Below, one piece after another: positions 20,404 to 64,000 of a DNA stretch of 64,000 nucleotides (its first letter is position 1; the number at the start of each line of letters is the position of its first letter). The notes below the pieces were generated by a model. That model had not been told where the DNA came from, ran no database searches, and saw nothing but the letters and a program-made list of their open reading frames with translations. This stretch comes from Scenedesmus sp. PABB004. Lineage: Eukaryota. A program made the position numbers and the translations under genes. The DNA is taken from the NCBI GenBank assembly GCA_014905635.1, contig JABVCE010000011.1, forward strand, positions 806,001 through 870,000. The letters run 5' to 3'.

Positions 20404-22182
20404 TTAAACGAGGAGACGCGCGAGGCGCTGCTGCTCCGCCTGGAGCGCGGCCACGGCCGCCGCGCGCACCGCGGCGGCGACGCCGCCGGCCGCCGCCACG
20501 CCGTGGGCGATCGCCTCGGCCGCGGCCGGGCTGCACCCGAGCTCCAGGATGTGCGCGTGCCGCAGCTGCACGGCGTCGCAGTTGAGGAGGCAGTGGTCCC
20601 GGAAGCTGCCCACGCGCTGCCAGACCGCGCCGCAGCACTCGACAAGCTGCTCGTACTGCATCAGCTCGGCCGCCAGCAGCCTGTGCTGCCCAGCCGCCTG
20701 CCGGGCCGCCGCCGCACGCGCCGGCCGCGCCAGCTCGTACCGGGGCGCCAGCGGCGCCTGCTGCGCCTGCAGCGCGGCTGTCGTCGCCGCGTGCACGTCG
20801 CCGTCGCCACCGCGGGCAGCCGCCAAGCCGCGCTGCAGCGCGTCCTTGGCGGCGGGGCTGTGCCCCCCCCCCCCGTTCAGCTCCTGAAACGCGCGCCGCT
20901 GCAGCGACGCGGCGCAGCCGCCGGCGCAGTGGCCGGCGTAGTCGCCCAGGCGCAGCCACACCTGGCCGCAGCACTCCACATGCAGCTCGAGCTGCTCCAG
21001 GTCGGCCGAGAGCTGCCTGACCTGATGTGCCGCCGCCTCGGCCGCCTGCCTGACCAGCAGGTCTCGTGAGAAGCGAGCGGCGAGTGGCGCCTGCTGCGCC
21101 TGCAGTGCGGCCACGGCCGCCGCGCGCTCTGCGGCGGCGTCGCCGCCGGCCGCCGCGCCGCTGGCCAGCGCGGCCGCGACCACGGGGCTGCGCCGCTGGT
21201 TCAGCTCCTGAAACGCGCGCCGCTGCAGCGACGCGGCGCAGCGGCCGGCGCAGTGGCCGGCGTAGTCGCCCAGGCACAGCCACACCTGGCCGCAGCACTC
21301 CACATACAGCTCGAGCTGCTCCAGGTCGGCCGAGAGCTGCCTGTCCTGCGCGGCCCGCTCAAAGCGAAGCGCCAGCGGCGCCTGCTGCGCCTGCAGCGCG
21401 GCCACGGCCGCCGCGCGCTCTGCGGCGGCGTCGCCGCCGGCCGCCGCGCCGCTGGCCAGCGCGGCCGCGACCACGGGGCTGCGCCGCTGGTTCAGCTCCT
21501 GAAACGCGCGCCGCTGCAGCGACGCGGCGCAGCCGCCGGCGCAGTGGCCGGCGTAGTCGCCCATGCGCAGCCACACCTGGCCGCAGCACTCCACATAAAC
21601 CTCCATCAGGCTTAGCTCGGACACCAGCTTCATGTGCTCATAGCGGGCGGCCAGCGGCGCCTGCTGCGCCTGCATCGCGGCCACGGCCGCCACGCCCACC
21701 GCGGCGGCGCCGCCGCCGGCCGCCGCCCCGTGGGCCAGCGCGGCCGCGACCGCCGTGCTGTGCCCGCTGTCGAGCAGGATCCTGCGCCGCTCCTGCGACT
21801 CGCTGCAGCGGCCGGTGCAATGGCTGCAGTAATTGTTGCCGACGCCAGAGCGCCGCCAAACGTGGCCGCAGCACTCGACAAACACCTCAAGCCGCGCAAG
21901 CATCCGCGCAGACGTGGCGCGCTGTATGTGAGGCTCCGGCTTGAAATCTCGCCAGCCCCGCGCCCAGCTCAGCATGCCCTCGGTGGCGCTGGCGCTGTAC
22001 TGCCCCACCGCCTGCCGCGCCAGCCTGAGCACGTCGGTGGTGCTGCTCACGGCCGCAGCAGCGCCACTGCCGCCTGCCGGCAGCTGCGGCGGGGCCGGAG
22101 GTGCCTGCTGGGGTGGCGCTCCTGGCTGCGCGAAGGCTGGGGCGCCCGCAGACGCGCCGAGGCCGGTGCGAGGCGGATCCAT
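20404..22182 (-). CDS. Intronless 592-aa hypothetical protein with five Cys/His repeats (putative zinc-binding)
   Basis: The single ORF has non-artefactual composition and five copies of VECCGxVW-x5-8-[YF]xxHCxxxC, each followed by an Ala-rich helical linker. The DNA of the middle copies is near-identical. Confidence 0.72.
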   Translation of the reverse strand: MDPPRTGLGASAGAPAFAQPGAPPQQAPPAPPQLPAGGSGAAAAVSSTTDVLRLARQAVGQYSASATEGMLSWARGWRDFKPEPHIQRATSARMLARLEVFVECCGHVWRRSGVGNNYCSHCTGRCSESQERRRILLDSGHSTAVAAALAHGAAAGGGAAAVGVAAVAAMQAQQAPLAARYEHMKLVSELSLMEVYVECCGQVWLRMGDYAGHCAGGCAASLQRRAFQELNQRRSPVVAAALASGAAAGGDAAAERAAAVAALQAQQAPLALRFERAAQDRQLSADLEQLELYVECCGQVWLCLGDYAGHCAGRCAASLQRRAFQELNQRRSPVVAAALASGAAAGGDAAAERAAAVAALQAQQAPLAARFSRDLLVRQAAEAAAHQVRQLSADLEQLELHVECCGQVWLRLGDYAGHCAGGCAASLQRRAFQELNGGGGHSPAAKDALQRGLAAARGGDGDVHAATTAALQAQQAPLAPRYELARPARAAAARQAAGQHRLLAAELMQYEQLVECCGAVWQRVGSFRDHCLLNCDAVQLRHAHILELGCSPAAAEAIAHGVAAAGGVAAAVRAAAVAALQAEQQRLARLLV

Positions 22183-22468
22183 TTGCAGCCGCGCACCTAG
22201 CGGGAAGCGCAGCCCGTGCGGCGAGGCGAGTGAAAGTCTCCACTCGCAGCCGCCCGGATCGGCAATCTGGCATGCTTACGCGACCTGGTGAAAGAGGAAT
22301 GGGGGCGTACATGACGGCGCCGCTGTTTTGGCATTCCGGCTGTGCCCTTCCTCGAGCGCTCCAAGAGCGCCGCGTCCGGGCAGTATAATATCCGTCCACG
22401 CGCGTGCCAGTAGGCTGCCGCAGGCAGCCTGTCGCCGCCGCCACCGCCCGCGGCGCGCCGTCGCAGCC

Positions 22469-48010: not shown

Positions 48011-48523
48011 GGCGCCTGCTGTGGCGCCCTGGGCTACCGCTGGCGCGCAGCGCGCGGGAACGGTGTCAGGGGGACGCCAGCGAGGCGAGGGAGCGACCAG
48101 GACGACCGGGCGGGCCGCGTGCGCGCCGGTGGGCGGCCTGGCGAGCGACAACACGCAGGCGGGCGCGGGCGGCGACAGCTGCGGCTGTTTCGGTGACAAC
48201 CAGGGGCGACGAATGCGGGCCAGGACCCGGCGCAGGCCGCGGCGCGCCGGCGCTCAAATTCTAACAACGACGCCGCCACGTCGTCGCGTCGCGTCGCGCG
48301 ACCATTGCCTGCTCGCCCGCGCCGCTCCGACCACTCGCCGAGCTCGGCGCTGCTCCAGCGTCGCCCCACCGCCCCCTGCCGCCGCCGCCGCCGCTGCCGC
48401 CGCCGCCGCCGACGGCGGCAGCCGCCGCTGCCGAGCCCGCGGCTCGGCGGGCACAGCCCGGCCGCCGCTGTGCGCGCGGCACCCTCTCTCGCCCACCCCC
48501 GACCTCGTGCCGCCCTGCCGGCG

Positions 48524-49435
48524 ATGGCCGCACCGAGCAGCACGCCGCGCTGGCAGCAGCGCAGCCGGCCGGGCTGCAGCCTGGCGGCGGGCGCCGCGCG
48601 CCCGCGCCGCGCCGTGGCGGCGGCGGCGCGTGGCGGCGGGAGCAGCATCGAGGTCAACCTGCAACGCCTCGCCAGCGACGCGGGCTGGCTGCCGCCGCGC
48701 GCGTGCGGGCCGGTCGAGATTCGGCAGCTCCCCGGCCGCGGGCGCGGCCTCGTCGCCACGGCCGACGTCGCGCCAGGGCAGCTGCTCTTCGTGTCAGAGC
48801 CGCTCGGCGCCGTGCGCCGCGGCGCGCTCGGCGAGCAGCTGCGGCCAACCGACCTGCTCGCGCACTGGCGCGAGCAGGCTGCGCCGCTGTCGGCGGCCGA
48901 CCGGGCGAAGCTGTCGCTGCTGCACCGCCCGGGCGGCCCGCCGCCGCCGGCGGCGACGCTGCGCGACCTTTCGGCGGCCAAGGCCGCCGCCAAGGCCAGG
49001 AAGGCCGGCGCGCGCGGCTTCGGCGCCGCGGCGGTGGCGGGCCCCACGGCGCCCGACGACGACGCGCTGGCCGCAGTCGTGGCGACCAACGCGTACGCCG
49101 ACGACCGCACCGACGGAGCGCTCACCGTGTGCCGCGGCGAGGCGCAGGCCAGCACGGTCGGCGTGTGGCCAGAGTATTCGCTGGTCAACCACGGCTGCGC
49201 ACCAAACACGGCGGCGCCGGTCCTGGTCGGCGACCGCCTGCTGCTGCGCGCGGCGGTGGCCGTGCCGGCAGGATCCGAACTGGTGACTAGCTACCTCGGC
49301 CCGGCGGGCGGGCTGCCGCGCGCCGCGCGCCAGGCACTGCTGCGGGCCGGCTACGGCTTTGACTGCAGCTGCACGCGCTGCAGGGTGCGGCGCCGGCGCG
49401 CGGGCGCGCCTGCCCACGCGTGCGCCAGCGCCCGA

Positions 49436-49530
<95 letters not shown>

Positions 49531-50345
49531 TGCCCGTGCCGCCGACGCCCGGAACGCGCGCGCCGCAGGCCGAGGCGGCCGCGCCGGCGGAGGTCGCCGC
49601 GACACTGGACGCGATGCACGAGTGGGTCGGGGGCCAGCCCGACCCCGCGGCGCTGCTGGAGCTCATGGCCGACGGCGGAGAGGCGGCGCGGCGCACGGTG
49701 GCCGAGACGGCCGCCGCGGCCGCCGAGCTGCTCGCGCGGCTCGACGCGCAGCTCGAGGAGTCGGTCGCCGAGCCGGTGCTGCGCTGCTGGCTGCGCGCGG
49801 GCGCGTTTGCCACCGCCGCGCTCGCGGCGCGCGCGGGCGAGTACGCGCGCGGCGAGCGCGACCCGGGCGCGGCCAGCCGGCTCGCGGAGCTCGTGCGCGT
49901 CTTTGCGCCGGCGAGCGAGGAGCACCTGCTGCTGCTGTCCGACGGCGCCGTGCGCGCGGCGGAGGCGGCCGCCGCGGGCGGCGCGCCGGCGGCGCCCGAG
50001 GACGGCACCGAGCTGCGCGTGCAGCAGCTCGTGCGGGTGCGGCGGGGGTACCGCGGCGCCGCGGCGCCGCGGCGCCGCGCCGCCGCGCAGGGGCGCACCG
50101 CGCCCCGCCTCCCCGCCCCCGCCCGCGCCGAGCGCGCGCGCCCGCGCCCGCGCGCGCAGGCGCTCGCGCTGCGGTATGGCGAGCCGCGGGAGCTGGAGCT
50201 GTTGACGCGGCTGGCCGGCGCGCTGACCGAGGCGTTCCCCCACCACTGGCTCGGGCTCGTCGACCTGACCGGCCACATGGGGCTCGCACAGCTGCAGGCG
50301 GCAGCGGGCGCGGCGACCGCGACGGGCGGCGGCGGCGACGCGTGA
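48524..50345 (+). CDS. SET-domain (SMYD-like) protein lysine methyltransferase, probably organelle-targeted
   Basis: GRGRGLVATADVAPGQLL, GVWPEYSLVNHGCAPN, ELVTSYL and post-SET YGFDCSCTRC. Arg/Ala/Ser-rich N-terminus. Confidence 0.88.
49436..49530 (+). repeat. (GCCCGC)n hexanucleotide microsatellite in a SET gene intron
   Basis: About 16 tandem copies between the GT donor (~49385) and the AG acceptor (~49568). Confidence 0.9.
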
Positions 50346-50584
50346 GCCGGACGGTGCGGGTCTCTGCCAAGCCCTGCCCGCCAAGCTCGACGCCGCGCCG
50401 CCGCCGCTGGGCCCGCTGTGCTTGCGCGGTCGCTCTCTTGAGGGAACCACGACGGCGGCCGCAGCAGGCCGCCCGCAGGCGCCGCGCGCCGCGACAGCAG
50501 CAGCGCCCGCCGCTGTTTCCGCCTCGCGGGCGCCCCGCCGCCGCCCGACCGCCGCCCGATCCCGGCTGCCATGGGCCGCGCGGC

Positions 50585-51409
50585 ATGAGCGCTGCCAGCC
50601 CGCGGCCGCCGCCGCCGCGCAAGTGCGCGGAGGTGTGCCTCGAGCTGCTCGCGGCGGAGGCGGTCGCGCTCTTCGGCGCCAAGCAGAGCGGCCCCGCCGC
50701 GCCCGCGGCGCTGCAGGCGGTGGGCTTCCGCGTGGGCCGGCAGCTGGCGGAGCGGTGCGGCGCCGCGAGCGGCGCGCAGGCCGCCGCCGCGCTGCTGTGC
50801 CGGCGCGCCGCGCAACGGCTGCGGCCCCCGCCCGCCCCGCCGGCGCGGCAGGTACAGCAGGGACAAGCCGCGCCTCGGCGACACGCTGGAGGTGATCAAG
50901 TTTGTGTGCAAGGATTTTTGGCTCGCGGTGTTCAAGAAGCAGGTCGACAACCTCAAGACCAACCACCGGGTGCGGCGGCCAGCGCCGGCGGCGGGCTGAG
51001 GCGGCCGGCCGCGGCGGCCGCGCCGCACGGCGCGGCCGCCCAACGCGCCCGCGCGGCGCGGGCCCGCCGCCGCCAGGGCATCTACGTGCTGCAGGACAAC
51101 AGCTTCCGCTGGCTGCTGCGCGTCGCGCCCGCGGCGGCGCTGCCCGACGGCGCGCGCGGCGAGTTCCTGGCGGCCGCGGCCCTGCCGTACCTGGAGCTGC
51201 CGTGCGGCATCATCCGCGGCGCGCTGACGCACCTGGGCATCAACTGCACGGTCGAGGCGGACGCGCGCGCGCTGCCCAGCTGTGAGCGAGCGAGAGCCGC
51301 GCGGGCGGACGGCCGCCGGTGCGCCGGGCCGGCGGCGCCGGCCGCCGAGCGCCGCCCCTGCCCCCCCCCCCCTGCCGCAGGCTCCTTCACAATCAAGATC
51401 ACGAGCTGA
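50585..51409 (+). CDS. TRAPPC6: TRAPP complex subunit 6 (Trs33/Bet3 family), 4 exons
   Basis: [60 protein letters not shown]...[13 protein letters not shown]. Confidence 0.94.
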
Positions 51410-52298
51410 GCCGGCGGTCGCTGCGGAGACGCGGCACGCTGGGACAGCCGCCAGCTGCGGCGGGGGGACCAGGCGCGTCGGGCCGGGCCCAGACGAGTGG
51501 CGCGTGGTCGACCGCACGGTCGACCGCCGGGCGTGCCAAGCTGCTGCCGCCGCCGCGCCGGCAGTAACGCACTCGCGCGCGCTGCAGCTGCCGACCCAGG
51601 GGCCCCAGGCCCGTCGCAGCGGAGCGGCGCGCAGTGCGGCAGTGCGCGCCGCGCACGGCCGTCCTGCAAAGCTCGGCCGCCGGCCGCCGCTGCGCGCGGC
51701 GCGGCCGGCGCACTCGCCCGCGCGCCGCCGCAGCCGCGTGGCTGTGAGACCGGCCGCTGCGCCGCCCAGGCGCAGGCCCGCCGCGTCGGCTGGCCCTCGC
51801 GTGCCGCGCGCGCGCCCCGCCGCCGGCTCCGCCACGGGCCGACCGCGCCCGCGCCCGCGCGGCCGCCCTGTACCACCTCCACGCCACTCCCGCACACCCC
51901 CGCACAGCGCGGGGCGGCCCGGCGCAGCCCGCCGCGCCGCGCCGGCAAGTACGGCGCCGCTGGGCCCTGAGCCCTGGCGCCGGCGAGCCGTTCAAACGCC
52001 GCCGCCGCCCCGGCCTCCGCCATACGCTTCCAGGGCGCCGCCTGTTCAGTAGCACCTCCACGCCGCAGCGCCCAGCCCCCGGGGCAGCCCCGCCGCCCGC
52101 GGCGCCCGACGCCGCTGCGCAGGTGCGCCGGCCGCCCCCCAGGCCGCGCCGCCGTGCTGCGCGCGTCGCCGCGCCCGCCACGGGCTCTCCACACTCCCGC
52201 TTCCGTACACACGCGCGCCCGCATCCCGCAGACGCCAGAGCACGCGTCCCGAGACCGCGCGCCGCGCCGGCCATCCCGCCGCCGCCACGCCCCCAGGC

Positions 52299-55200
52299 AT
52301 GGCGCCCGCCGACCGGCCGCGCGCCCACCGGGCGGCGCGTGGTCTGCTGGTCATCGCCGCGCTGAGCTGCCTGCTCGCCGGCGTGCGGGTGCGGCGCCGC
52401 GGGCCCCGCCGGCGCCGCGCACGCGGCGCTGTGCCGGGCGCGTCACGCCCCGACCGCGCTCACCACCGCCCCTGCGCACATCGCACACCCCAGGGTGACA
52501 CCTGTGCGTCACCCACTGACACCAGCCTGGCGTGCCCCACGGGCAAGGTCGCGGCCCCCGCCAACGCCGCCGCCGACATCGGGGGCACGACCGACCCCGC
52601 GGTGTACGACGGCCTCTGCTGCTCCTATGTGAGCGGTCGGCTGACTGCGCGTGCGCGCCCCTTCCAGTGCGGGGATGCTGTCGCTGCCGGCGCCTGCTGA
52701 CCCGCCGCCGCCGCCGCCGCGCCCTCGACTAACAGGCGACCGGCGCCACGTGCGGCAACGCCGACGGCGCCGGCACGGCGTTCAGCGCGTCCGACTGCGG
52801 CAGCGGCCTGGAGCCCAACGCCGCCCACGCCAGCACCGTCATCGACGCCATGACCACCGCCCAGGCCATCGCGGCGTGCTGCCAGGCCGTCACGCCTGTC
52901 ACGCCTGCGTCGGTGAGCGCCGCGGCGGAGCCCGCAGCCTGGCTCGCCACGCGTGCTGCGTGTGCTGGCGGCGCGTGCGTGGGCCGACAGAGCTGCTGCC
53001 GCCGCGGCTGTGCCTCTCCGCCCTGACCACCCCGCCGCCGCCACCGCCCCGCGCAGCCCTACCCGTCCGGCGCCACGTGCGGCAACGCCGACGGCGCCGG
53101 CACGGCGTTCAGCGCGTCCGACTGCGGCAGCGGCCTGGAGCCCAACGCCGCCCACGCCAGCACCGTCATCGACGCCATGACCACCGCCCAGGCCATCGCG
53201 GCGTGCTGCCAGGCCGTCACGCCTGTCACGCCTGCGTCGGTGAGCGCCGCGGCGGAGCCCGCAGCCTGGCTCGCCACGCGTGCTGCGTGTGCTGGCGGCG
53301 CGTGCGTGGGCCGACAGAGCTGCTGCCGCCGCGGCTGTGCCTCTCCGCCCTGACCACCCCGCCGCCGCCACCGCCCCGCGCAGCCCTACCCGTCCGGCGC
53401 CACGTGCGGCAACGCCGACGGCGCCGGCACGGCGTTCAGCGCGTCCGACTGCGGAAGCGGCCTGGAGCCCAACGCCGCCCACGCCAGCACCGTCATCGAC
53501 GCCATGACCACCGCCCAGGCCATCGCGGCGTGCTGCCAGGCCGTCACGCCTGTCACGCCTGCGTCGGTGAGCGCCGCGGCGGAGCCCGCAGCATGGCTCG
53601 CCACGCGTGCTGCGTGCGCTGGCGGCGCGTGCGTGGGCCGACAGAGCTGCTGCCGCCGCGGCTGTGTCTCTCCGCCCTGACCACCCCGCCGCCGCCACCG
53701 CCCCGCGCAGCCCTACCCGTCCGGCGCCACGTGCGGCAACGCCGACGGCGCCGGCACGGCGTTCAGCGCGTCCGACTGCGGCAGCGGCCTGGAGCCCAAC
53801 GCCGCCCACGCCAGCACCGTCATCGACGCCATGACCACCGCCCAGGCCATCGCGGCGTGCTGCCAGGCCGTCACGCCTGTCACGCCTGCGTCGGTGAGCG
53901 CCGCGGCGGAGCCCGCAGCATGGCTCGCCACGCGTGCTGCGTGCGCTGGCGGCGCGTGCGTGGGCCGACAGAGCTGCTGCCGCCGCGGCTGTGTCTCTCC
54001 GCCCTGACCACCCCGCCGCCGCCACCGCCCCGCGCAGCCCTACCCGTCCGGCGCCACGTGCGGCAACGCCGACGGCGCCGGCACGGCGTTCAGCGCGTCC
54101 GACTGCGGCAGCGGCCTGGAGCCCAACGCCGCCCACGCCAGCACCGTCATCGACGCCATGACCACCGCCCAGGCCATCGCGGCGTGCTGCCAGGCCGTCA
54201 CGCCTGTCACGCCTGCGTCGGTGAGCGCCGCGGCGGAGCCCGCAGCCTGGCTCGCCACGCGTGCTGCGTGTGCTGGCGGCGCGTGCGTGGGCCGACAGAG
54301 CTGCTGCCGCCGCGGCTGTGCCTCTCCGCCCTGACCACCCCGCCGCCGCCACCGCCCCGCGCAGCCCTACCCGTCCGGCGCCACGTGCGGCAACGCCGAC
54401 GGCGCCGGCACGGCGTTCAGCGCGTCCGACTGCGGAAGCGGCCTGGAGCCCAACGCCGCCCACGCCAGCACCGTCATCGACGCCATGACCACCGCCCAGG
54501 CCATCGCGGCGTGCTGCCAGGCCGTCACGCCTGTCACGCCTGCGTCGGTGAGCGCCGCGGCGGAGCCCGCAGCATGGCTCGCCACGCGTGCTGCGTGCGC
54601 TGGCGGCGCGTGCGTGGGCCGACAGAGCTGCTGCCGCCGCGGCTGTGTCTCTCCGCCCTGACCACCCCGCCGCCGCCACCGCCCCGCGCAGCCCTACCCG
54701 TCCGGCGCCACGTGCGGCAACGCCGACGGCGCCGGCACGGCGTTCAGCGCGTCCGACTGCGGCAGCGGCCTGGAGCCCAACGCCGCCCACGCCAGCACCG
54801 TCATCGACGCCATGACCACCGCCCAGGCCATCGCGGCGTGCTGCCAGACCGTCACGCCTGTCACGCCTGTGTCGGTGAGCGCCGCGGCGGAGCCCGCAGC
54901 CTGGCTCGCCACGCGTGCTGCGTGTGCTGGCGGCGCGTGCGTGGGCCGACAGAGCTGCTGCCGCCGCGGCTGTGTCTCTCCGCCCTGACCACCCCGCCGC
55001 CGCCACCGCCCCGCGCAGCCCTACCCGTCCGGCGCCACGTGCGGCAACGCCGACGGCGCCGGCACGGCGTTCAGCGCGTCCGACTGCGGAAGCGGCCTGG
55101 AGCCCAACGCCGCCCACGCCAGCACCGTCATCGACGCCATGACCACCGCCCAGGCCATCGCGGCGTGCTGCCAGACCGTCACGCCTGTCACGCCTGTGTC

Positions 55201-58200
55201 GGTGAGCGCCGCGGCGGAGCCCGCAGCCTGGCTCGCCACGCGTGCTGCGTGTGCTGGCGGCGCGTGCGTGGGCCGACAGAGCTGCTGCCGCCGCGGCTGT
55301 GCCTCTCCGCCCTGACCACCCCGCCGCCGCCACCGCCCCGCGCAGCCCTACCCGTCCGGCGCCACGTGCGGCAACGCCGACGGCGCCGGCACGGCGTTCA
55401 GCGCGTCCGACTGCGGCAGCGGCCTGGAGCCCAACGCCGCCCACGCCAGCACCGTCATCGACGCCATGACCACCGCCCAGGCCATCGCGGCGTGCTGCCA
55501 GGCCGTCACGCCTGTCACGCCTGTGTCGGTGAGCGCCGAGGCGGAGCCCGCAGCCTGGCTCGCCACGCGTGCTGCGTGTGCTGGCGGCGCGTGCGTGGGC
55601 CGACAGAGCTGCTGCCGCCGCGGCTGTGCCTCTCCGCCCTGACCACCCCGCCGCCGCCACCGTCCCGCGCAGCCCTACCCGTCCGGCGCCACGTGCGGCA
55701 ACGCCGACGGCGCCGGCACGGCGTTCAGCGCGTCCGACTGCGGAAGCGGCCTGGAGCCCAACGCCGCCCACGCCAGCACCGTCATCGACGCCATGACCAC
55801 CGCCCAGGCCATCGCGGCGTGCTGCCAGGCCGTCACGCCTGTCACGCCTGCGTCGGTGAGCGCCGCGGCGGAGCCCGCAGCATGGCTCGCCACGCGTGCT
55901 GCGTGCGCTGGCGGCGCGTGCGTGGGCCGACAGAGCTGCTGCCGCCGCGGCTGTGTCTCTCCGCCCTGACCACCCCGCCGCCGCCACCGCCCCGCGCAGC
56001 CCTACCCGTCCGGCGCCACGTGCGGCAACGCCGACGGCGCCGGCACGGCGTTCAGCGCGTCCGACTGCGGCAGCGGCCTGGAGCCCAACGCCGCCCACGC
56101 CAGCACCGTCATCGACGCCATGACCACCGCCCAGGCCATCGCGGCGTGCTGCCAGGCCGTTGCGCCCGCGTCGGTGAGGGCCGCAACGGCGCCCGCGGGC
56201 TGGCCTGCCGATCGTGCTGCTGCGTGCGCTGGCGGCGTGGGTTGGCTGGCAGAGCCGCCGCCGCCGCGGCTGTGCCTATCCGCTCTGACCATCCTGCCGC
56301 CGTCGCCCCCGCCCCCGCAGCCTCCCCAGCTCTCTGGCTGTGACACCGCCAACATGATCCAAAACGCTGATCAGACGGCCTGCGTGTGCCCCATGGGCTT
56401 TGCCTTCAACCCCGCCGTGCCCGACGGCGCGGCCGCCAACTGCACCGCGTGCCCGGCCGCCACCTTCAACGACCAGCTCGGCACCACCACCGCGACCACC
56501 TGCAGGCCCTGCGCCGCTCCGCTCGCTGCCAGCGCTGACCGCACGGCCTGCGTGTGCGGCGGTGGCTTTGTCGCCGACTCCGGCAGCGATGACTCGATGC
56601 GCACCCTGCTCAGTCTCGACGCGCCCAGCTGCGGTAAGCGGCCCGCGCCGGGGCTCGCTGCTTGGCCCTGCTGCCCGGTCCCGCGTGCGCGCGCGAGGCC
56701 ATCCCACCCCGCCGCCGCTGCTCGTGCTCGCCGCGCCCCCGCCGCGCGCGCAGTGTGCCCCGCCGGCTTCAAGTACACGCCCGCCGGCGACGCCCCCGCG
56801 ACGCCGCCGACCTGCGTCGCGTGCACGGGCAGCACCTTCAGCACCGCGCCTGGCTCCACCGACTGCGCCGCTTGCGCCGCGCCCAAGGTCGTGAGCAGCG
56901 ACAGGACGGCCTGCGTGTGCGGGCCCAGCTTTGTGGACCGCGACGGCACCTGCGGTGAGCGCGCTGGCGGCCCACCAGGCTGCCGGCGGCTCGGCCGCCA
57001 GCCGGCACCAGCGGCGGCGCAGCCTCGGCGCTGCTCGCTGACTCCCGTGCCGCCTGGGCGCGCGCGCGTGCCCGCAGAGTGCCCCGCCGGCTTCAAGTTT
57101 GACGCCGCCGCCAAGACCTGCTCCGTGTGCCCCGCCGGCACCTTCAACGCCGTCGTCGGCCGCGCCGTGGCCGTCGACGCCACGAGCACCAGCTGCAACG
57201 CCACCTGCGCCGCGGCGGGCATGGCGCCCAACGCCGCGCGCACGGGCTGCGCGTGCGCCAACAACTTTGTCGGGAGCGCCGCCGACCCCGCCGTCTGCGG
57301 TGCGTGCAGCGCGGCGCGGCGCGGGTCGCCGCTGCCGCCACCGCCGCTGCGGCCTCGCACGGCGACCGCCGCCCACCCGCCGCCCGACCACACCCGCCAC
57401 CGCCGCCGCGCAGAGTGCCCCGCCGGCTTCCTGCGCAACGCCACCGACGGCACCTGCAGGCGCTGCCCCGCGGGCCGCGTCAGCGCGGCGCCTGACTCTG
57501 CGACCTGCGAGGCCTGCCCCGTCGCGGGGGAGGTGCCCAACGCCGCCCGCACGGGCTGCGTGTGCCCCAAGGGCTTCGCCTTCACCCCCGCCGTGCCCGA
57601 CGGCGCAGCCGCCAACTGCAGCGCCTGCCCGGCGGCCACCTTCAACGACCAGCTCGGCACCACCACTGCGACCACCTGCAGCGCCTGCGCCGCGCCGCGC
57701 GTTGTCGCGCCCGGCGGCGTGGCGTGCGTGTGCGGCGGCGGCTTCGTGCCTGACCGCGTGGACGCCAGCCAGTGCGGTGAGGCGGGGCGGCCGGGCGCGG
57801 CCGCGGTCGCAGCGCGCGCAGCGTAGCGTGCCGCCCCCTGCCTCGCTGCTCTCCGCGCTGACGCGCGGTCGGCCCGTCCCCGCATCGCCTGCCCCGCAGT
57901 GTGCCCGCCCGGCTCCAAGCTGACGCCCGCGTCCGGCGAGACGCCTGCCAGCTGCCAGGCATGCCCGGCCGGCAGCTTCAACGAGCATCCCGACGCCCCC
58001 GCGTGCCTGCTCTGCCCCGCGCCGGTCAAGGCCGTGAGCGGCGACCGCACCGCCTGCCTGTGCGCCAACGGCTTTAAGCGGGACCCGAACGACCCGACCG
58101 CCTGCGGTGGGTTGCTGCTGCCGCCGCCGCGCCGCGCCCGCGGCAGTCGAGCAGGCCTGGCGGCCCCACGCTGCGTGTGCTGCGCCAGCCCGCGCCCACC

Positions 58201-60477
58201 GCCGCCGCCCCCTGGCCGCCCCCTGGCCGCCCCCGGCCGCCCCCGCGCAGCGTGCCCCGCCGGCTTTGCGCTCGACGCCGCGGCCCAGACGTGCCGGCAG
58301 TGCCCCGCCGGCACCTTCAACGCCGAGGTCGGCCGCCAGTACGACACCGCCTGCAGTGCCGACTGCCCGGTGCTGGGCCAGGTCCCCAACGGCGCGCGCA
58401 CCGGCTGCGTGTGCGGCGCCGTGGTGGGCGCCAACAGCTTTGTGCGGTCAGGCGACGCCTGCGGTGAGCACGCAGGCCGTGCGACGCCCCTGCCGCGGCG
58501 CCCGGCCGGGGCTGCGCGCCCCACGCCCTGCGCCCTGAGCCCCGCTCCGCACCGCGCCGACCGCCCTGCCGCCCCGAAGCGTGCCCGGCGGGCCACGAGT
58601 TTGACGCCGCCGCCGGGACGTGCACCGCGTGCGCCGCGGGCAGCTGGAATGCCGACGAGGGCACGGCCGCCAGCACCTTCTGCAAGGCCGGCTGCCCCGT
58701 CGACAACATGGTCCCCGCGGCCGACGGCACTGGCTGCGAGTGCCCCAAGGGCTGCGCCTTCACGCCCGCCAGCGGCGACACGCCCGCGACCTGCGAGCCC
58801 TGCCCCGAGGTGCGCGGCTGGCTGGGCGGCGTGGATGCAGCACGTGCTGCCGCTGGGCGGCGGGGCCGGCCGCCCGGGCTGCTGCTGCCGCGGCCCCGGC
58901 CGCCGCTGGCTGCGCGCCGACCCCGCCCGCCGCCTGGCCGCCCGCCGCCAGGGCGAGTTTGGCCCCACCGTGGGCGCTGGCCCTGCTCTCACCACCTGCA
59001 TGGCCTGCTCCCCGCCGCGCGTCCTCGCGGCCGACCAGACGTCTTGCGACTGCCCCGCGGGCCTTGACTGGGACGGGAGCGTGTGCGGTGCGTGGCCCGC
59101 GGACGCCTGGCCGCCCGCCCTGGACCGCACGGCGCTGCGCTGCCTGGCTCCTGCTGGCGCCCGCGCGCTGTGCCGAGGTCGCCCATGACGCCGCGACCGC
59201 CGCCGCCGCCGCCGCCGCCGCTCCGCAGTGTGCGGCGCGGGCTCGTACCTGCAGGCCGGCGTGTGCGCCAAGTGCCCCGCCGGCACGTACTCGGACGAGC
59301 TGGCCTCGCCCAGCTGCGCGGCCTGCCCCGACCGCCAGGTGCCCAGCGCCGACCAGACAAGCTGCCTGTGTGCCGCGGGCTTCTTCGACGACGGCACCGG
59401 CGGCTGCCAGCGCTGCCCGGCCGGCACCTTCAGCCGCAGCGCCGGCGCGCACCACTGCGACGCGTGCGAGGCGCCGGGCGTGCTGGCCGCCGACCAGTCC
59501 GCGTGCGCCTGCCCCGCGGGGCACGCGCTGGACGCCGACTCGGGCGACTGCGCCGCCTGCCCCGCGGGGACCTGGAGCGACGCGCCAGACGCCCTCGCCT
59601 GCCGCGCCTGCCCCGCGGGCAAGGTGCTCGCGGCCGACGCCTCCTCGTGCGACTGCCCCGCCGGCAGCTACGCCGACGCCGCTGGCGAGGGCGCCTGCGG
59701 TGAGACGGCGCTGCCGCCGCAGCGGGGGCGCTTCATGAGCGCGCTGCGCCGCCCCCCGACCCCCCCTGCGCGCCTGACCTGCCCGCTGCCCGCTTCCCCG
59801 CCCGCTCGGCCCGCAGTGCTGATCCCGCAGCAGGGCCAGGGCGAGTCCACGGCCACGGTGAGCTCCACGTTCCTGCTGACCTTCCAGGCGGACTTTGACA
59901 AGCTCGCGGCGGACGCGGCCAAGCTCAGCGCGTTCAAGGACGACCTGCGCGCCAGTGTGGCCCGCGGCGCGCGCGTGCCCGTGTCGCGCGTCACCGTCGC
60001 CAGGGTGCGGAGGGGCCGGGCGGCGACGGCGCGCGCATGGCCGCGCCGCCGCGCTGCACCAGCCGGCGCTGGCGGCGGGGGGAGGTCTTGCGCGCCCCGC
60101 GCCGTCGCCCACGCGCGCCCGCGCCCCCTGCCCCCGTCCCGCGCCTCGCGCAGGTGTACAAGGGCTCCGTGAAGGCCGACGTCGTCGTGACCGCGCCCGC
60201 GGACGAGGCGACGCAGGCGGGCCTCGTGTCGGCGCTCGTGGCCAGCCCCGACGCGCTCTTTGACTCGACCTTCAAGACCGCCTACGACGTCACCGGCCCC
60301 GTGGCCGGCACGCCCACCTCGACGGTCGTGTACGAGTCCGACCAGCAGGCCGTGCGCATCGGCGCGGGCGTGGGGACCGGCCTCGGCGCGTCGCTGGGCA
60401 TCGCGGGCTGCGTGACCGCGCTCGTCGTGGCGCGCCGCGCGCGCGCCGCCGCCGCGCGCGCACGGGACTACGTGTGA
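52299..60477 (+). CDS. Giant Cys-rich type I membrane/cell-surface protein (signal peptide, 11 tandem 4-Cys modules, GCC2/GCC3-like CPAG repeats, SEA-like domain, TM helix)
   Basis: MAPAD...GLLVIAALSCLLAG leader; repeat exons at 52736-56173; many CxxCPAGT[FY]/CPAGF modules at 56320-59700; then STFLLTFQADF...VSRVTVAR|VYKGSVKADVVV; TM IGAGVGTGLGASLGIAGCVTALVV followed by ARRAR...DYV*. Confidence 0.85.
52736..56173 (+). repeat. 327-bp tandem array: 11 exons (183-nt unit, first and last slightly shorter) separated by 10 near-identical 144-nt introns
   Basis: Exact 327-nt periodicity, with exon starts at 53057, 53384 ... 56000. Each unit has a TCG|GTGAGC donor, a CTGAC branch-like motif and a CGCAG|CCC acceptor. 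Confidence 0.97.
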
Positions 60478-60971
60478 GATGCAGCAGGGGGATTGCACGG
60501 CATGCAGCAGGATGCTCCCTTTTTTCCTCCGCTTGCGCTGGGATTCGACCATTCACGCAGGGCGGCGCGCCGCCAGTGCGCGCGCGCCGCCCACCGAGCT
60601 GCACTGCGTTCGGACGCACGCGCGCGCGCGCGCGCGCGCGCCCTCTGCTCGCGCGGCCGCGGCCTGTGCAGGCTGCTGCACCGCATTCTGTCGCGCAACC
60701 CAACTTCCTGTGCGAGTGTGGCTCGCGCGTTCGTCTGTGATCTGTGCGAGTCAACAGCGACTGACTGAACAGTCATGACTGAGACCCGGTGCACCGCGTC
60801 ACGTGACGCGGCGGACGGACGCCGCGGCTGCAACCCGTGGGCTCCTGCATGTGTGTGCCCCAGACCCCCTCCCACCGGCAGCTCTGCCGACGCAGCCTCT
60901 GAGCTCAGCGCCGCAGCGCTGCACCGTCCCGCCGCCACGCTAGCCCACCGCCGCGCAGCCGAGCACACCCC

Positions 60972-62779
60972 ATGCGGGGACGGCTGGCATGGGTTGGTCG
61001 TGCCGTGGCGCGCGCGGGCTGGAGCGGCAGCAGCGGCAGCAGCAGCAGCAGATGCTGCTCGAGCGCCAGCGCCGCCGCGGTGGAGCGCGACATCTACACC
61101 GCGCGGGCGGGCGAGTTGCCGCCTGAGTTTGTAGGGGACGTGCTGGCGGCGCTTGTTGGCCCCAAGGCGCGCCGCGGCGTGGTGGCGCGGCGCGCGACGC
61201 GCGCCGGAGCGCTGCTGCTGGCGGCGCGGCCCGCAGGTGCGCGGGCGGCGCGCCGGCGGGGGTCGGCGGTCACCCGGGGCGTGCGGCCCTAACCGGGGCG
61301 CCGCCCGGCGCGCCGCAGCGATCGTCGAGGGCGCGCCCGAGGAGCAGCCGAACGCGGCGGCGCTCGTCCCGGCGCTGCAGGCCGCGTCGGCCGCGCCGGG
61401 CGTCGCGGCGGCGCTGGGCGCCCTGTACGACGGCACCGCCGAGTCGGCGCAGCGCCCGCCCGACCTGCGCAACATGGCGGCGGCGGGGCAGCAGGGCGGC
61501 GGCGGCGGCTGCGGGCACGCGCACCACCAGGGCGGCGGCGACTGCGGCGGCGGCCACGGCCACGGCGAGCACCACGGCCACGGCGGCGGCGGCGGCGGCG
61601 GCGCGGGGCTGCCGGCCGAGCGCGCGGCGGCGCTGGTCAAGTTCAACGCCTTTGGCGACGACTACGAGGACCTGCCCGCCGCAGCGGCGCGCGGCGTGGC
61701 GCTGCCGCACAGCCACGTGGGCCTCTGGCCGCAGGTCCGCGCGCGGCCGGGGCGGGCGGCGCGCGCGCGGCGCGCGACGCGCCGCCCACGCGCCGCCCCC
61801 GCGCGCGCGCTCGCTGTCCACCCCAGTTCTCGCTGTTCAACCACGCCTGCCTGCCCAACGCGGTGCACTACGTCGTGGGGCACTGCATGGTCGTGCGGTC
61901 GGTCGACGACGTCCCCGCGGGCGAGGAGCTGCTGGTCAGCTACCTGGGGCGCGAGGAGTACTCGCCCGCGCCCGTGCGGCAGGCGCTGCTCGCGGAGCGG
62001 TTCGGCTTTGGCTGCGCGTGCAGCCGCTGCGCGCTCGAGGCCGACGCGCCGCGCGCGCTGACGGCGGCGATCCGGTCCGCGTACGACGCGGTCACCCAGG
62101 CGCGACGTGACGTGTGGGGCTGGGCCGGGCGGAGGGGAGGGCAGGACAGGGACGCGTGGGATGGGCGCAGCGCGCGGCGGCCGTGCTGCCAGCGCCGGCG
62201 GCGGCGGCGGCGCGGCCGATGCGTGCCGCGCGCGACGCCGCCCCCCCCTCTCGCGCCCGCCGCGCGCAGGAGCTCAAGCCGGCCTTCATGGAGGCGGTGG
62301 CGGCGCAGGACGTCGTCGGGCTCGCGGCGACGCAGACGGCGCTGGCCGCGCGCGAGGCCGCGCTGTCGGCCGCGCTCGCCGCGCACCTGCCGCGCCTGAG
62401 CGACGGCGCGGCCCTGGTGCTGCAGGCGGGCGCGTACGAGCTGCACGAGCTGCTGCTCTTCTGCGAGCAGCTCGCGCCGGCGCAGCACGGCGGCGGTGGC
62501 GGCGGGGAGCGGTCGCACGCGCTGCTCGGCCGGCTGGGGCGGTGCCTCGCGATCGTCGCGGCGGCGAGCAAGGGCGCGGAGCTCCACGTCTTCCTCGCCG
62601 CGCGCCTGGCGGCGCACGCGGCCGCGCTGCGCGGCCCCGACTCGCCCGCCGCGGCGGCCGCGGCGGGGCTGCTCGACGGCGCGCTGCGCGCGCGCTACGG
62701 CGGCGCGATGGACGACCCCGACCTCGCGCGCGCGCTGCTCGAGGCGAGTGAGGCGGCGGCGGAGGAGTTTCTGATGTGA
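60972..62779 (+). CDS. Second SET-domain (SMYD-like) protein with His/Gly-rich insertion
   Basis: RRGVVARRATRAGALLL, NAF, VGLWPQ|FSLFNHACLPNA, GEELLVSYLG and post-SET FGFGCACSRC. The start codon is tentative. Confidence 0.85.
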
Positions 62780-63159
62780 TGAGCGCGCCAGGGGGTCGGC
62801 CGGGGCGCCTGGCGGCGACTCGCTGCCGGGCGTCATCGGCGCGGCGGCTTTGCAGCAACCGTTCGTCACCCGCCGCCGCGGCTGCCCGCTCAAGCTCGCC
62901 GCCGCCGCCACGCCCGCTCAAACCAGCAGCCATCCACGCACTCGCGGCGGCGCGCCCCGCGCGGTCACTCCCACGAGCGGCAGCCGGGCAGCAGCGGCGC
63001 CCAGCGGGGTGAGGCGCCGGCAGCGGCTGCGGCGGCCCTCGCGCCCAAGCCCTGTCCGTCCCGGCCGGACCGTGAGCCTTCCGCGCTCCCCTCAGCCGCG
63101 CCCGCGCGCCCAGGCGCAGCCGGGAGCAGCGGCGCTCGCCGCGGCAGCAGCCAGCGGCG

Positions 63160-63920
63160 ATGGACGCGCCCGCGCGCGGCGCGCTGCTCACGTTTGATGA
63201 AGCGCTCACGGGCTACGTCGGCGAGCTCGGCAGGGTGCGTGGAGCCGCGCGCGCCGCGCCGGCCAGGGCGCCGCCGCGTTGTTTGAGCTCACCGCGCCGC
63301 CGCAGGGCCAGCAGCGCGTCATCGCGCTCGTCTCGCTGCTCTCCATCCCCAACGGCCTCATGTGAGCGGCCGCCGCGGTCACTGCCCAGCGTCCAGCGCC
63401 CAGCGCCCAGCGCGCCCAGCGCGCGCCCGCCGCGGCTCCGCCCCCGCGCGCGCAGCTTCCTGCTGTGGGTGTTCCTGACCATCGACCCGGTGTGCGCGCG
63501 CGCGTGGGCGTGCGCGGACGCGACCGACGCGGCGTGCGCGGCCGTGTGGGCGCGCCCGACGGCGGCGGGGCTCTGCGGCCTGCCGCGCGGCGCGTGGGCG
63601 TGGAGCGCCCCCAACGGCAGCCTCGTGTCGCGCTTCGACCTCGTCTGCGCCGGCGCGTTCAAGGTGCAGCTCGGCAACTCGCTGTTCTTCATCGGCTGCT
63701 TCTTGGGCTCCGCGCTCTGCGGCACGCTCAGCGACCGCCACGGGCGCAAGTGGCCGATGTTTGGCGCGACCGCGCTCGCGGCCGCCGCGACGCTCGCGGG
63801 CGCGGCGGCGCCGGCGTACGCGTTCGCCGCGGCCGCGCGCCTTGTCGCGGGCGTCGGCGCGGCGGGGCAGGTGCAGGGCATCCTGCTGCTCTGCCTCGAG
63901 GTCACCGGCCCCTCACGACG
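63160..63920 (+). CDS. MFS organic cation/carnitine transporter-like protein (OCT/SLC22), 5' part; continues beyond the window
   Basis: TFDEALTGYVGELGR|GQ, SLVSRFDLVC, SLFFIGCFLGSALCGTLSDRHGRK (MFS motif A). GT donor near 63921. Confidence 0.88.
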
Positions 63921-64000
63921 GTGAGTGAGTGAACCAGCGGCGGCAGCGCGCGCGCGCGCGCGCGCGCGGGCGCGCAGCGCGGCGCGCGGCGCAGCGCGCG

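Follow-up and report, generated by a model that had tools for sequence, protein, structure and literature searches.

Scenedesmus sp. PABB004 is a unicellular chlorophycean green alga with a genome of 39.8 Mb in 77 contigs, for which a comparative study of Sphaeropleales gives a guanine-plus-cytosine (GC) content of 78.5%, with most of its relatives (Sphaeropleales) near 56%, and a total of 7,092 annotated genes (PMC12571836). We analyzed a window of 64,000 nucleotides (nt) of this genome (contig JABVCE010000011.1, positions 806,001 to 870,000 of the forward strand; positions below count from the first letter of the window), with a focus on a predicted surface-protein gene that carries a tandem array of eleven exons separated by copies of the same intron. 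The gene model was built by hand from GT-AG sites that preserve one reading frame. It comprises 24 exons spread over 52299-60477 on the forward strand, running from an ATG at 52299 to a TGA at 60475-60477 (Table 1). All introns are of the GT-AG type and range between 105 and 149 nt, and the coding sequence of 5,091 nt encodes a product of 1,696 amino acids (aa), its sole stop codon being the terminal one. The green-algal poly(A) signal TGTAA was not found near the 3′ end of the gene, and three occurrences were counted in the whole window for 4.4 expected. An Rfam scan of the whole window gave no match.

The array itself was delimited with Tandem Repeats Finder, which reported a single array at 52740-56322 with a period of 327 base pairs (bp), 11.0 copies, 97% matches, 0% indels, and a score of 6713, by far the strongest tandem repeat of the window (the runner-up scored 1031). 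A reading of the DNA made from its letters and open reading frames (ORFs) alone, hereafter the sequence-only reading, had described a tandem 327-bp array of complete exon-plus-intron cassettes with eleven exons, and both its coordinates and its description proved accurate. Cutting the array in register yields one exon of 177 nt, nine exons of 183 nt starting at 53057+327i (i = 0..8), and one exon of 174 nt, all of them with lengths divisible by three and in phase 0-0. The proposed unit, a 183-nt phase-0/phase-0 exon followed by a 144-nt GT-AG intron, is found both in this in-register reading and in the gene model. The 61-aa peptide quoted for the unit is the exact translation of six of the nine 183-nt exons, and the other three depart from it by one or two substitutions (A>T, A>V). 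All ten 144-nt spacers share a GTGAGC start and a CGCAG end, and each contains exactly one stop codon in the exon frame. The eleventh spacer is 80.7% identical to the unit intron by global alignment (78.7% by blastn); it represents an older copy that has diverged. As predicted, a stop thus interrupts the exon frame in all of the 144-nt introns, but the eleventh spacer is open, and the ORF list that was thought to miss the gene does show it in pieces: eleven stop-to-stop ORFs of 97 to 108 aa, each corresponding to one exon and its intron flanks. Two long open frames in the same list also cross the whole array. Since the GC content of the window lies between 72 and 81% throughout, stop codons are rare and long open frames occur everywhere on both strands, and these two frames are products of that composition.

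Sequence divergence within the array is low and similar in its two parts. Among ten units, 8 of the 317 shared columns are variable, of which three are among the 173 exon columns and five among the 144 intron columns (Fisher p = 0.48), in agreement with the earlier claim that the introns are as well conserved as the exons. On average, two of the nine full units differ at 0.79% of exon positions and 1.47% of intron positions, and the ten repeated introns are at least 97.9% identical by blastn. Of the three variants in the exon, one is synonymous and two replace residues conservatively in the linker that ends each module. Identity to the unit consensus in unit 11 is 94.5% for the exon, compared to 80.7% for the intron, and this greater conservation of the exon supports the proposed partition.

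Several other features separate the predicted exons from the predicted introns. The GC content at the three codon positions of the repeat exon (0.61/0.71/0.97) resembles that of the nonrepeat exons of the gene (0.65/0.67/0.95), whereas the repeat intron is flat (0.77/0.85/0.79). A profile prepared from 48 modules of eight proteins from other organisms, with no window sequence included, matched residues 2 to 52 of the 61-aa exon product with 46.9 bits, compared to 0.4 bits or less for three control exons. According to these limits, each exon would encode one module and a 9-residue linker, AVTPVTPAS, and the peptide obtained by reading through the intron has no counterpart in the homologues. A diverged relative recovered from freshwater metagenomes (runs X2 and X3, see below) allowed a further comparison, in which 15 of the 28 best-supported exonic differences listed fall on third codon positions (binomial p = 0.022), including four of the seven listed for module exon 13. 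The putative branch-point motif CTGAC is weakly enriched and offers weak support for the partition: it precedes the acceptor by 33 to 40 nt in five of the 12 nonrepeated introns whose acceptor lies outside the repeat (introns 2, 13, 15, 17, and 22), with a density of 2.8 per kilobase (kb) in introns versus 1.7 per kb in exons. The exon-plus-intron cassette first proposed is thus in agreement with the splice signals, which are canonical, with the GC content by codon position, with the limits of homology, and with the third-position bias.

Table 1. Exons, repeated introns, and sequence motifs of the predicted surface-protein gene (window positions).
Feature	Position	Strand	Remarks
Exon 1: start codon and predicted signal peptide (MAPADRPRAHRAARGLLVIAALSCLLAGVR)	52299..52388	+	Donor CGG/GTGCGG; one of two hydrophobic peaks
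Exon 2: divergent copy of the four-Cys module (C..C..CC), phase 0-0	52494..52628	+	12.3 bits (weak) to the profile without window sequence
Exon 3: module copy 1 (177 nt), first unit of the array	52736..52912	+	
Repeated 144-nt intron, first copy	52913..53056	+	GTGAGC donor, CTGAC at 53023-53027, C-rich tract, CGCAG acceptor
CTGAC branch-point-like motif, includes in-frame TGA 53024-53026	53023..53027	+	A 31 nt upstream of acceptor
Repeated 144-nt intron, nine further copies	53240+327i to 53383+327i (i = 0..8)	+	
Exon 4: module copy 2 (183 nt)	53057..53239	+	
Exon 5: module copy 3	53384..53566	+	
Exon 6: module copy 4	53711..53893	+	
Exon 7: module copy 5	54038..54220	+	
Exon 8: module copy 6	54365..54547	+	
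Exon 9: module copy 7 (A>T, A>V variants)	54692..54874	+	
Exon 10: module copy 8	55019..55201	+	
Exon 11: module copy 9	55346..55528	+	
Exon 12: module copy 10	55673..55855	+	
Exon 13: module copy 11 (174 nt; linker 9 nt shorter)	56000..56173	+	
Last, diverged copy of the repeated intron (147 nt)	56174..56320	+	CTGAC 33 nt upstream of acceptor
Exon 14: first ephrin-receptor-like Cys-rich repeats, phase 0 in / 1 out	56321..56633	+	
Exon 15: Cys-rich repeat, phase 1-1	56754..56954	+	
Exon 16: Cys-rich repeat, phase 1-1	57078..57299	+	
Exon 17: Cys-rich repeats, phase 1-1	57414..57776	+	
Exon 18: Cys-rich repeat, phase 1-1	57900..58106	+	
Exon 19: Cys-rich repeat, phase 1-1	58251..58463	+	
Exon 20: Cys-rich repeat, phase 1 in / 0 out	58580..58809	+	AAG acceptor
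Exon 21: Cys-rich repeat, phase 0 in / 1 out	58952..59087	+	
Exon 22: four Ephrin_rec_like repeats	59229..59699	+	PF07699, 64.6 bits vs cut-off 23.1
Exon 23: first half of juxtamembrane domain without family match	59817..60004	+	
Exon 24: remainder of that domain, membrane helix (IGAGVGTGLGASLGIAGCVTALVV), 15-aa basic tail, TGA stop	60154..60477	+	

The predicted product starts with a hydrophobic N terminus, followed by the exon 2 module, the eleven modules of the array (residues 76 to 741, 39% of the protein), a region of CPxG-type cysteine repeats, about 130 residues without family match, a helix, and a short tail. The cysteine repeats occupy nine exons and contain 21 CPxG motifs; about 20 ephrin-receptor-like repeats are predicted. 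The Ephrin_rec_like family (PF07699) matches exon 22 well above its cut-off, over four stretches and with overlapping TNFR-type matches; exon 17 lies just above the cut-off (23.6 bits), and exons 14 and 16 fall below it. In a Kyte-Doolittle scan with a 19-residue span, hydrophobic peaks were found only at residues 11-35 and 1658-1683. With an N-terminal signal peptide, a single C-terminal helix, and a basic cytosolic flank, the product is predicted to be a type I membrane protein. The two hydrophobic segments, one at each end, and the Ephrin_rec_like repeats are in line with the surface protein that had been proposed. Long Ser-Pro or Pro-rich rods of the pherophorin or hydroxyproline-rich glycoprotein type were not seen when the translation was inspected by eye without a profile, the only comparable stretches being the short TPVTPAS(P) linkers.

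Exon phases divide the gene into two classes of symmetric exons. The module exons are in phase 0-0, and the end of exon 2 and the start of exon 14 are likewise in phase 0. Six of the nine ephrin-like cysteine-repeat exons (exons 15 to 19 and 22, within 56754-59699) are in phase 1-1, each of them ending in ...Cys-G/GT. Residues 7 to 54 of exon 14 (56339-56482) and part of exon 17 (57515-57658) share 75% protein identity and reflect an older internal duplication in the ephrin-like region.

We then considered the module as a protein family. Pfam searches with the module queries returned no family at E ≤ 1, and in five homologues (E ≤ 0.01) the only matches were of the RCC1 or Ephrin_rec_like type, all of them outside the modules. 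A phmmer search of 1.84 billion representative sequences gave two matches (E = 7.8e-8 and 2.9e-6), P0006, a 263-aa hypothetical protein from the Joint Genome Institute with three modules, and P0007, a 1,228-aa protein of Scenedesmus sp. PABB004 with eight modules whose RCC1 repeats gave it the name UVR8. Through a region search that started from P0007, three paralogues from PABB004 and three proteins from Tetradesmus obliquus (1,263 to 1,446 aa) were added. A local profile detected 48 modules in the eight proteins together, between 3 and 11 in each. The combination of module and ephrin-like repeats recurs in two of the T. obliquus proteins, P0011 (Ephrin_rec_like, 29 bits for a cut-off of 23.1) and P0013, which UniRef names for that domain. 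The module consensus reads CCaYPaGATCgDvDG-(about 9)-C-G-(about 12)-I-aG-(about 5)-A-CC, and the pattern Y-P..A-T-C ... C ... I ... A...C-C is found in all 13 aligned full modules, apart from the Y-P start, which is missing in exon 2. In the module alignment, Y2 is invariant, and C8, G13, A46, C50, and C51 are at least 90% conserved. The statement that the module is not a named domain therefore stands for both the module and its homologues. The module is no orphan, as it recurs in Scenedesmus and Tetradesmus proteins and belongs to an unnamed four-Cys family of scenedesmacean algae.

A fold for the module was modeled with AlphaFold2 from a 12-row alignment. The best model reached a predicted local distance difference test score (pLDDT) of 85.4 and a predicted template-modeling score of 0.62, and the five models ranged from 58.7 to 85.4 in pLDDT. 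Residues 1 to 53 are ordered in the model, as a short helix, a strand, a short helix, an 8-residue helix, and a strand, followed by a floppy linker. The same order of elements is repeated in all three modules of a P0006 model, which is poor overall (pLDDT 50) and reaches 63 to 85 in the last two modules. No acceptable sequence match was found in the PDB (best E = 0.76), Foldseek gave no PDB match to the module model at E ≤ 10, and none of the 48,161 chains compared with it by VIA-align wide reached Z ≥ 2. A fold search of BFVD returned a single match with E = 8.7, and the best ESM Atlas scores (0.76 and 0.86) were to unnamed clusters and serve as leads only. For a modeled domain of 53 residues, the absence of a structural neighbor is not proof of a new fold. 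A scan of viral contigs with P0006 gave no match, and our search of the literature on ephrin receptor-like or cysteine-rich wall proteins of green algae found nothing on the module. In a proteomics study of the Scenedesmus obliquus wall, the main text holds no passage with "ephrin," "UVR8," or "cysteine-rich" (PMC11839794).

The pattern of variants within the array bears on how it arose. Six types of unit can be distinguished; from the first to the tenth unit they follow the order A A B C A B D E F B, and the diverged eleventh unit comes last. Units 2 and 3 (53057-53710) are identical to units 5 and 6 (54038-54691), a 654-bp block repeated three units apart, and the longest exact self-match extends over 853 bp at a lag of 981 bp, which indicates a duplication of three units at once. 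In addition, all four combinations of variants are present in 7 of the 28 pairs of variable sites, implying either exchange between units or recurrent mutation. We infer from this pattern that unequal homologous recombination and conversion within the array are the mechanism; amplification by unequal crossover, as suggested in the sequence-only reading, thus gains backing from the repeated block and the four-combination pairs. We also considered an introner-like dispersed element. A blastn search of the window with the 144-nt intron gave 11 full-length matches, all within the array, and elsewhere only short GC-rich matches of up to 102 aligned nt. With no full-length copy outside the array, such an element is ruled out in the window.

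DNA from independent samples was available through metagenomes. Small shares of the region 52200-60600 were detected in five freshwater-metagenome DNA runs, and contigs from two freshwater studies (runs X1 to X4, compared with window positions 50000-62000) carry the gene. Contigs of X1 and X4 are nearly identical to the window, with 0 to 2 differences over 151 to 357 nt, while those of X2 and X3 represent a relative that is 92 to 97% identical to the gene, so that the alga and a close relative occur in the sampled waters. X1 and X4, from one study, each include a 357-nt contig that spans exon, intron, and exon with one or two differences. This length is explained by the assembly graph, since a closed repeat loop gives 327 + 30 nt at k = 31. 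The differences correspond to unit columns 284 and 318, which are also variable within the array of the window. These contigs support the tandem arrangement and point to real variation at both columns; on the count of eleven they are silent. The 357-nt contigs are deeper than their flanks, but contig depth is no copy number. A scan of metagenome contigs with the module produced 597 pattern matches and a single tblastn candidate relative, L001. This 3,032-bp bacterial contig with 60% GC was rejected as spurious, as the match runs off-frame over a TonB-receptor-like ORF. The ORFs of L001 are TonB-dependent-receptor-like and response-regulator-like.

The remainder of the window contains unrelated features. 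Coding sequence for SET domains flanks the surface-protein gene on both sides, at 48197-51409 (+) and 61293-62399 (+) (Pfam SET, E = 3.2e-5 and 2.9e-7). The upstream SET open frame also matches a TRAPP component (2.7e-13) and probably merges two genes, both matches lying in one frame. In the open frame of this upstream gene region, a (GCGCCC) x 19.8 microsatellite at 49422-49540 encodes an (Ala-Arg)n run. Downstream, a major-facilitator or sugar-transporter-type exon is found at 63076-63924 (+) (MFS_1, 4.1e-9; Sugar_tr, 4.3e-8), running towards the end of the window. At 20404-22275 (-), a 623-aa open frame contains five or more copies of an approximately 97-aa protein repeat (YVECCGQVWLRLGDYAGHCAGGCAASLQRRAFQELN...), of which Tandem Repeats Finder detected 21071-21751 (291 bp x 2.4, 88%). 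Unlike the cassette array, this repeat is continuous, intron-less coding sequence.

Three other explanations of the array have to be weighed. Units about 99% identical, with so few variable columns, are hard for any assembler, and the metagenome contigs themselves fold the repeat into a single 357-nt loop. An assembly artefact in copy number or variant order, with a true locus of fewer or more cassettes, is nonetheless quite improbable, given that the unit differences are all substitutions and form six types in a structured order not expected of noise, that columns 284 and 318 vary in independent contigs too, and that the tandem succession of exon, intron, and exon was seen in independent samples. 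The repeat could also be coding without introns in another frame, either as a 1,232-aa frame at 52645-56343 (+) or as a 1,216-aa frame at 52625-56275 (-), both of which are open across the whole array. This is hardly credible: their GC by position (0.88/0.68/0.76 and 0.88/0.76/0.68) lacks the peak near 0.95 at the third position, their products are Arg/Ala/Gly-rich strings, and long open frames are expected at 78% GC, many of them being present on both strands of the window.

Alternatively, the array may be genomic but not expressed as modeled, either as an exon-derived minisatellite skipped as a block or as part of a decaying gene. The boundaries from exon 2 to exon 14 are all in phase 0, so that exon 2 could join exon 14 in frame, and the similar variability of exons and introns leaves no signal of selection within the array. 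No RNA run, moreover, was among those listed for the region 52200-60600, and the splicing is inferred from several agreeing lines of sequence evidence. We give this explanation little credence, because the open frame and all splice signals are intact in 11 of 11 exons, the GC content at third positions (0.97) equals that of the other exons, and the exon variants are limited to two conservative linker replacements and a synonymous change. The better conservation of the exon in unit 11 and the maintenance of the module family in many copies in related algae argue in the same direction.

Apart from the nature of the splicing evidence, other points weigh against the gene as modeled. The copy number rests on a single assembly. 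CTGAC does not occur in the other 7 of the 12 introns of the gene model examined for it, and the third-position test is confined to the best-supported differences, with 20 more beyond those listed. The signal peptide and the membrane helix were called by hydropathy and by eye, without a trained predictor. The boundary between exon 1 and intron 1 is the least certain of the model, because this 105-nt intron is in frame and stop-free. Finally, the protein collections searched yielded no annotated counterpart of the module array or of the C-terminal exon, so that no other gene model backs this one, and word-indexed protein searches gave no match for the module and none for the C-terminal exon, both being weak negatives. 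The thin annotation of this genome would explain the lack of a predicted protein for the gene.

Taken together, the locus probably represents a real 24-exon gene for a type I membrane glycoprotein, in which eleven exon-plus-intron cassettes were multiplied by unequal recombination. The protein would expose twelve four-cysteine modules of about 52 aa, eleven nearly identical and one divergent, each with a Thr/Pro-rich linker of about 9 aa, on a rod of about 20 ephrin-receptor-like or TNFR-type cysteine repeats, followed by a juxtamembrane domain, one helix, and a 15-aa basic tail without any signaling domain. Each module would be a single phase 0-0 exon that travels with its own intron (GTGAGC, CTGAC, a C-rich tract, and CAG). 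The 327-bp cassette may have multiplied recently by unequal homologous recombination between cassettes, at times three units together, and the array may still be undergoing homogenization. Since a cassette contains all splice signals and whole codons, its gain or loss preserves the frame and would alter only the number of modules at the membrane-distal end. The protein could serve to display, in multivalent form, a small disulfide-bonded module for binding or adhesion at the cell surface or in the wall. The length-tunable ectodomain put forward in the sequence-only reading is permitted by the exon phases only. A bolder proposal, which we regard as tentative and on the whole rather unlikely, is that the array is a copy-number-variable, fast-evolving display of a small, undescribed disulfide fold restricted to scenedesmaceans, in which strains or even clonal lineages vary the number of membrane-distal modules by unequal exchange or cassette skipping and thereby tune the reach or valency of an adhesin or recognition protein. 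The confident module model without a PDB fold match and the variant mosaic of ongoing exchange would allow it, and such a display, if true, might serve colony formation or contact with grazers, parasites, or viruses. If copy number varies among isolates, the array would also provide a strain marker and a candidate for surface variation in algae of ecological and industrial use. At 78% GC, gene finders fail on such a locus, as all frames are open and the true exons become visible only through codon-position GC. The unnamed module family of Scenedesmus and Tetradesmus surface-type proteins is a candidate for domain databases and a small structural target.

The closest relatives of the array differ from it in arrangement. 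T. obliquus P0011 and P0013, annotated as hypothetical or as ephrin type A/B receptor-like domain-containing, and PABB004 P0007 to P0010 carry 3 to 11 copies of the same four-Cys module, but these are mutually diverged and mostly abut without a Thr/Pro linker. In P0007 to P0010, named UVR8 or UBE3A for their RCC1 repeats, the modules are combined with RCC1 propellers, and in the T. obliquus proteins the ephrin-like part is N-terminal of the modules, unlike in the window protein. Homogenized arrays of exons and introns are already established in other organisms, and the gene architecture has precedents. According to the parts of the published description used here, kringle IV type 2 (KIV-2) of human LPA is a 5.6-kb unit with two exons that is present in 1 to more than 40 copies and gives more than 40 isoforms (PMC6314250). 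As in the alga, the unit is intragenic, arranged head to tail, made of complete exons and introns, and encodes one small disulfide-bonded extracellular module; the algal unit is, however, 327 bp long with one exon and a 144-nt intron, and organism and domain are unrelated. In LPA, copy number sets protein length, whereas the algal count comes from a single assembly. In the sections of a study of Argiope MaSp2 and flagelliform spidroin genes drawn on here, near-identical small introns alternate with similar-sized exons and are homogenized like the coding units (97.6% on average within a gene); unequal crossing-over was proposed, and alternative splicing, according to the authors, would alter length only (PMC9779670). 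Introns are homogenized together with exons in the algal array as well, yet the silk units are low-complexity Gly/Ala/Pro sequences of a secreted fiber, and the algal exon would encode a folded, membrane-anchored four-Cys module of a unicellular alga. The human NBPF Olduvai triplets, as far as the consulted portion of their description goes (PMC9584774), also consist of exon-containing units in a three-unit higher-order repeat, comparable to the duplicated 981-bp block of the alga, but they belong to an intracellular protein, with units of about 1.6 kb and a far more extensive higher-order structure. We found no published account of such arrays in green algae in the open-access literature. Next to these precedents, the locus offers a very clean and compact case, in a unicellular green alga, of a self-contained exon-plus-intron cassette that multiplies, to which it adds a higher-order duplication of three units and a recombination mosaic.

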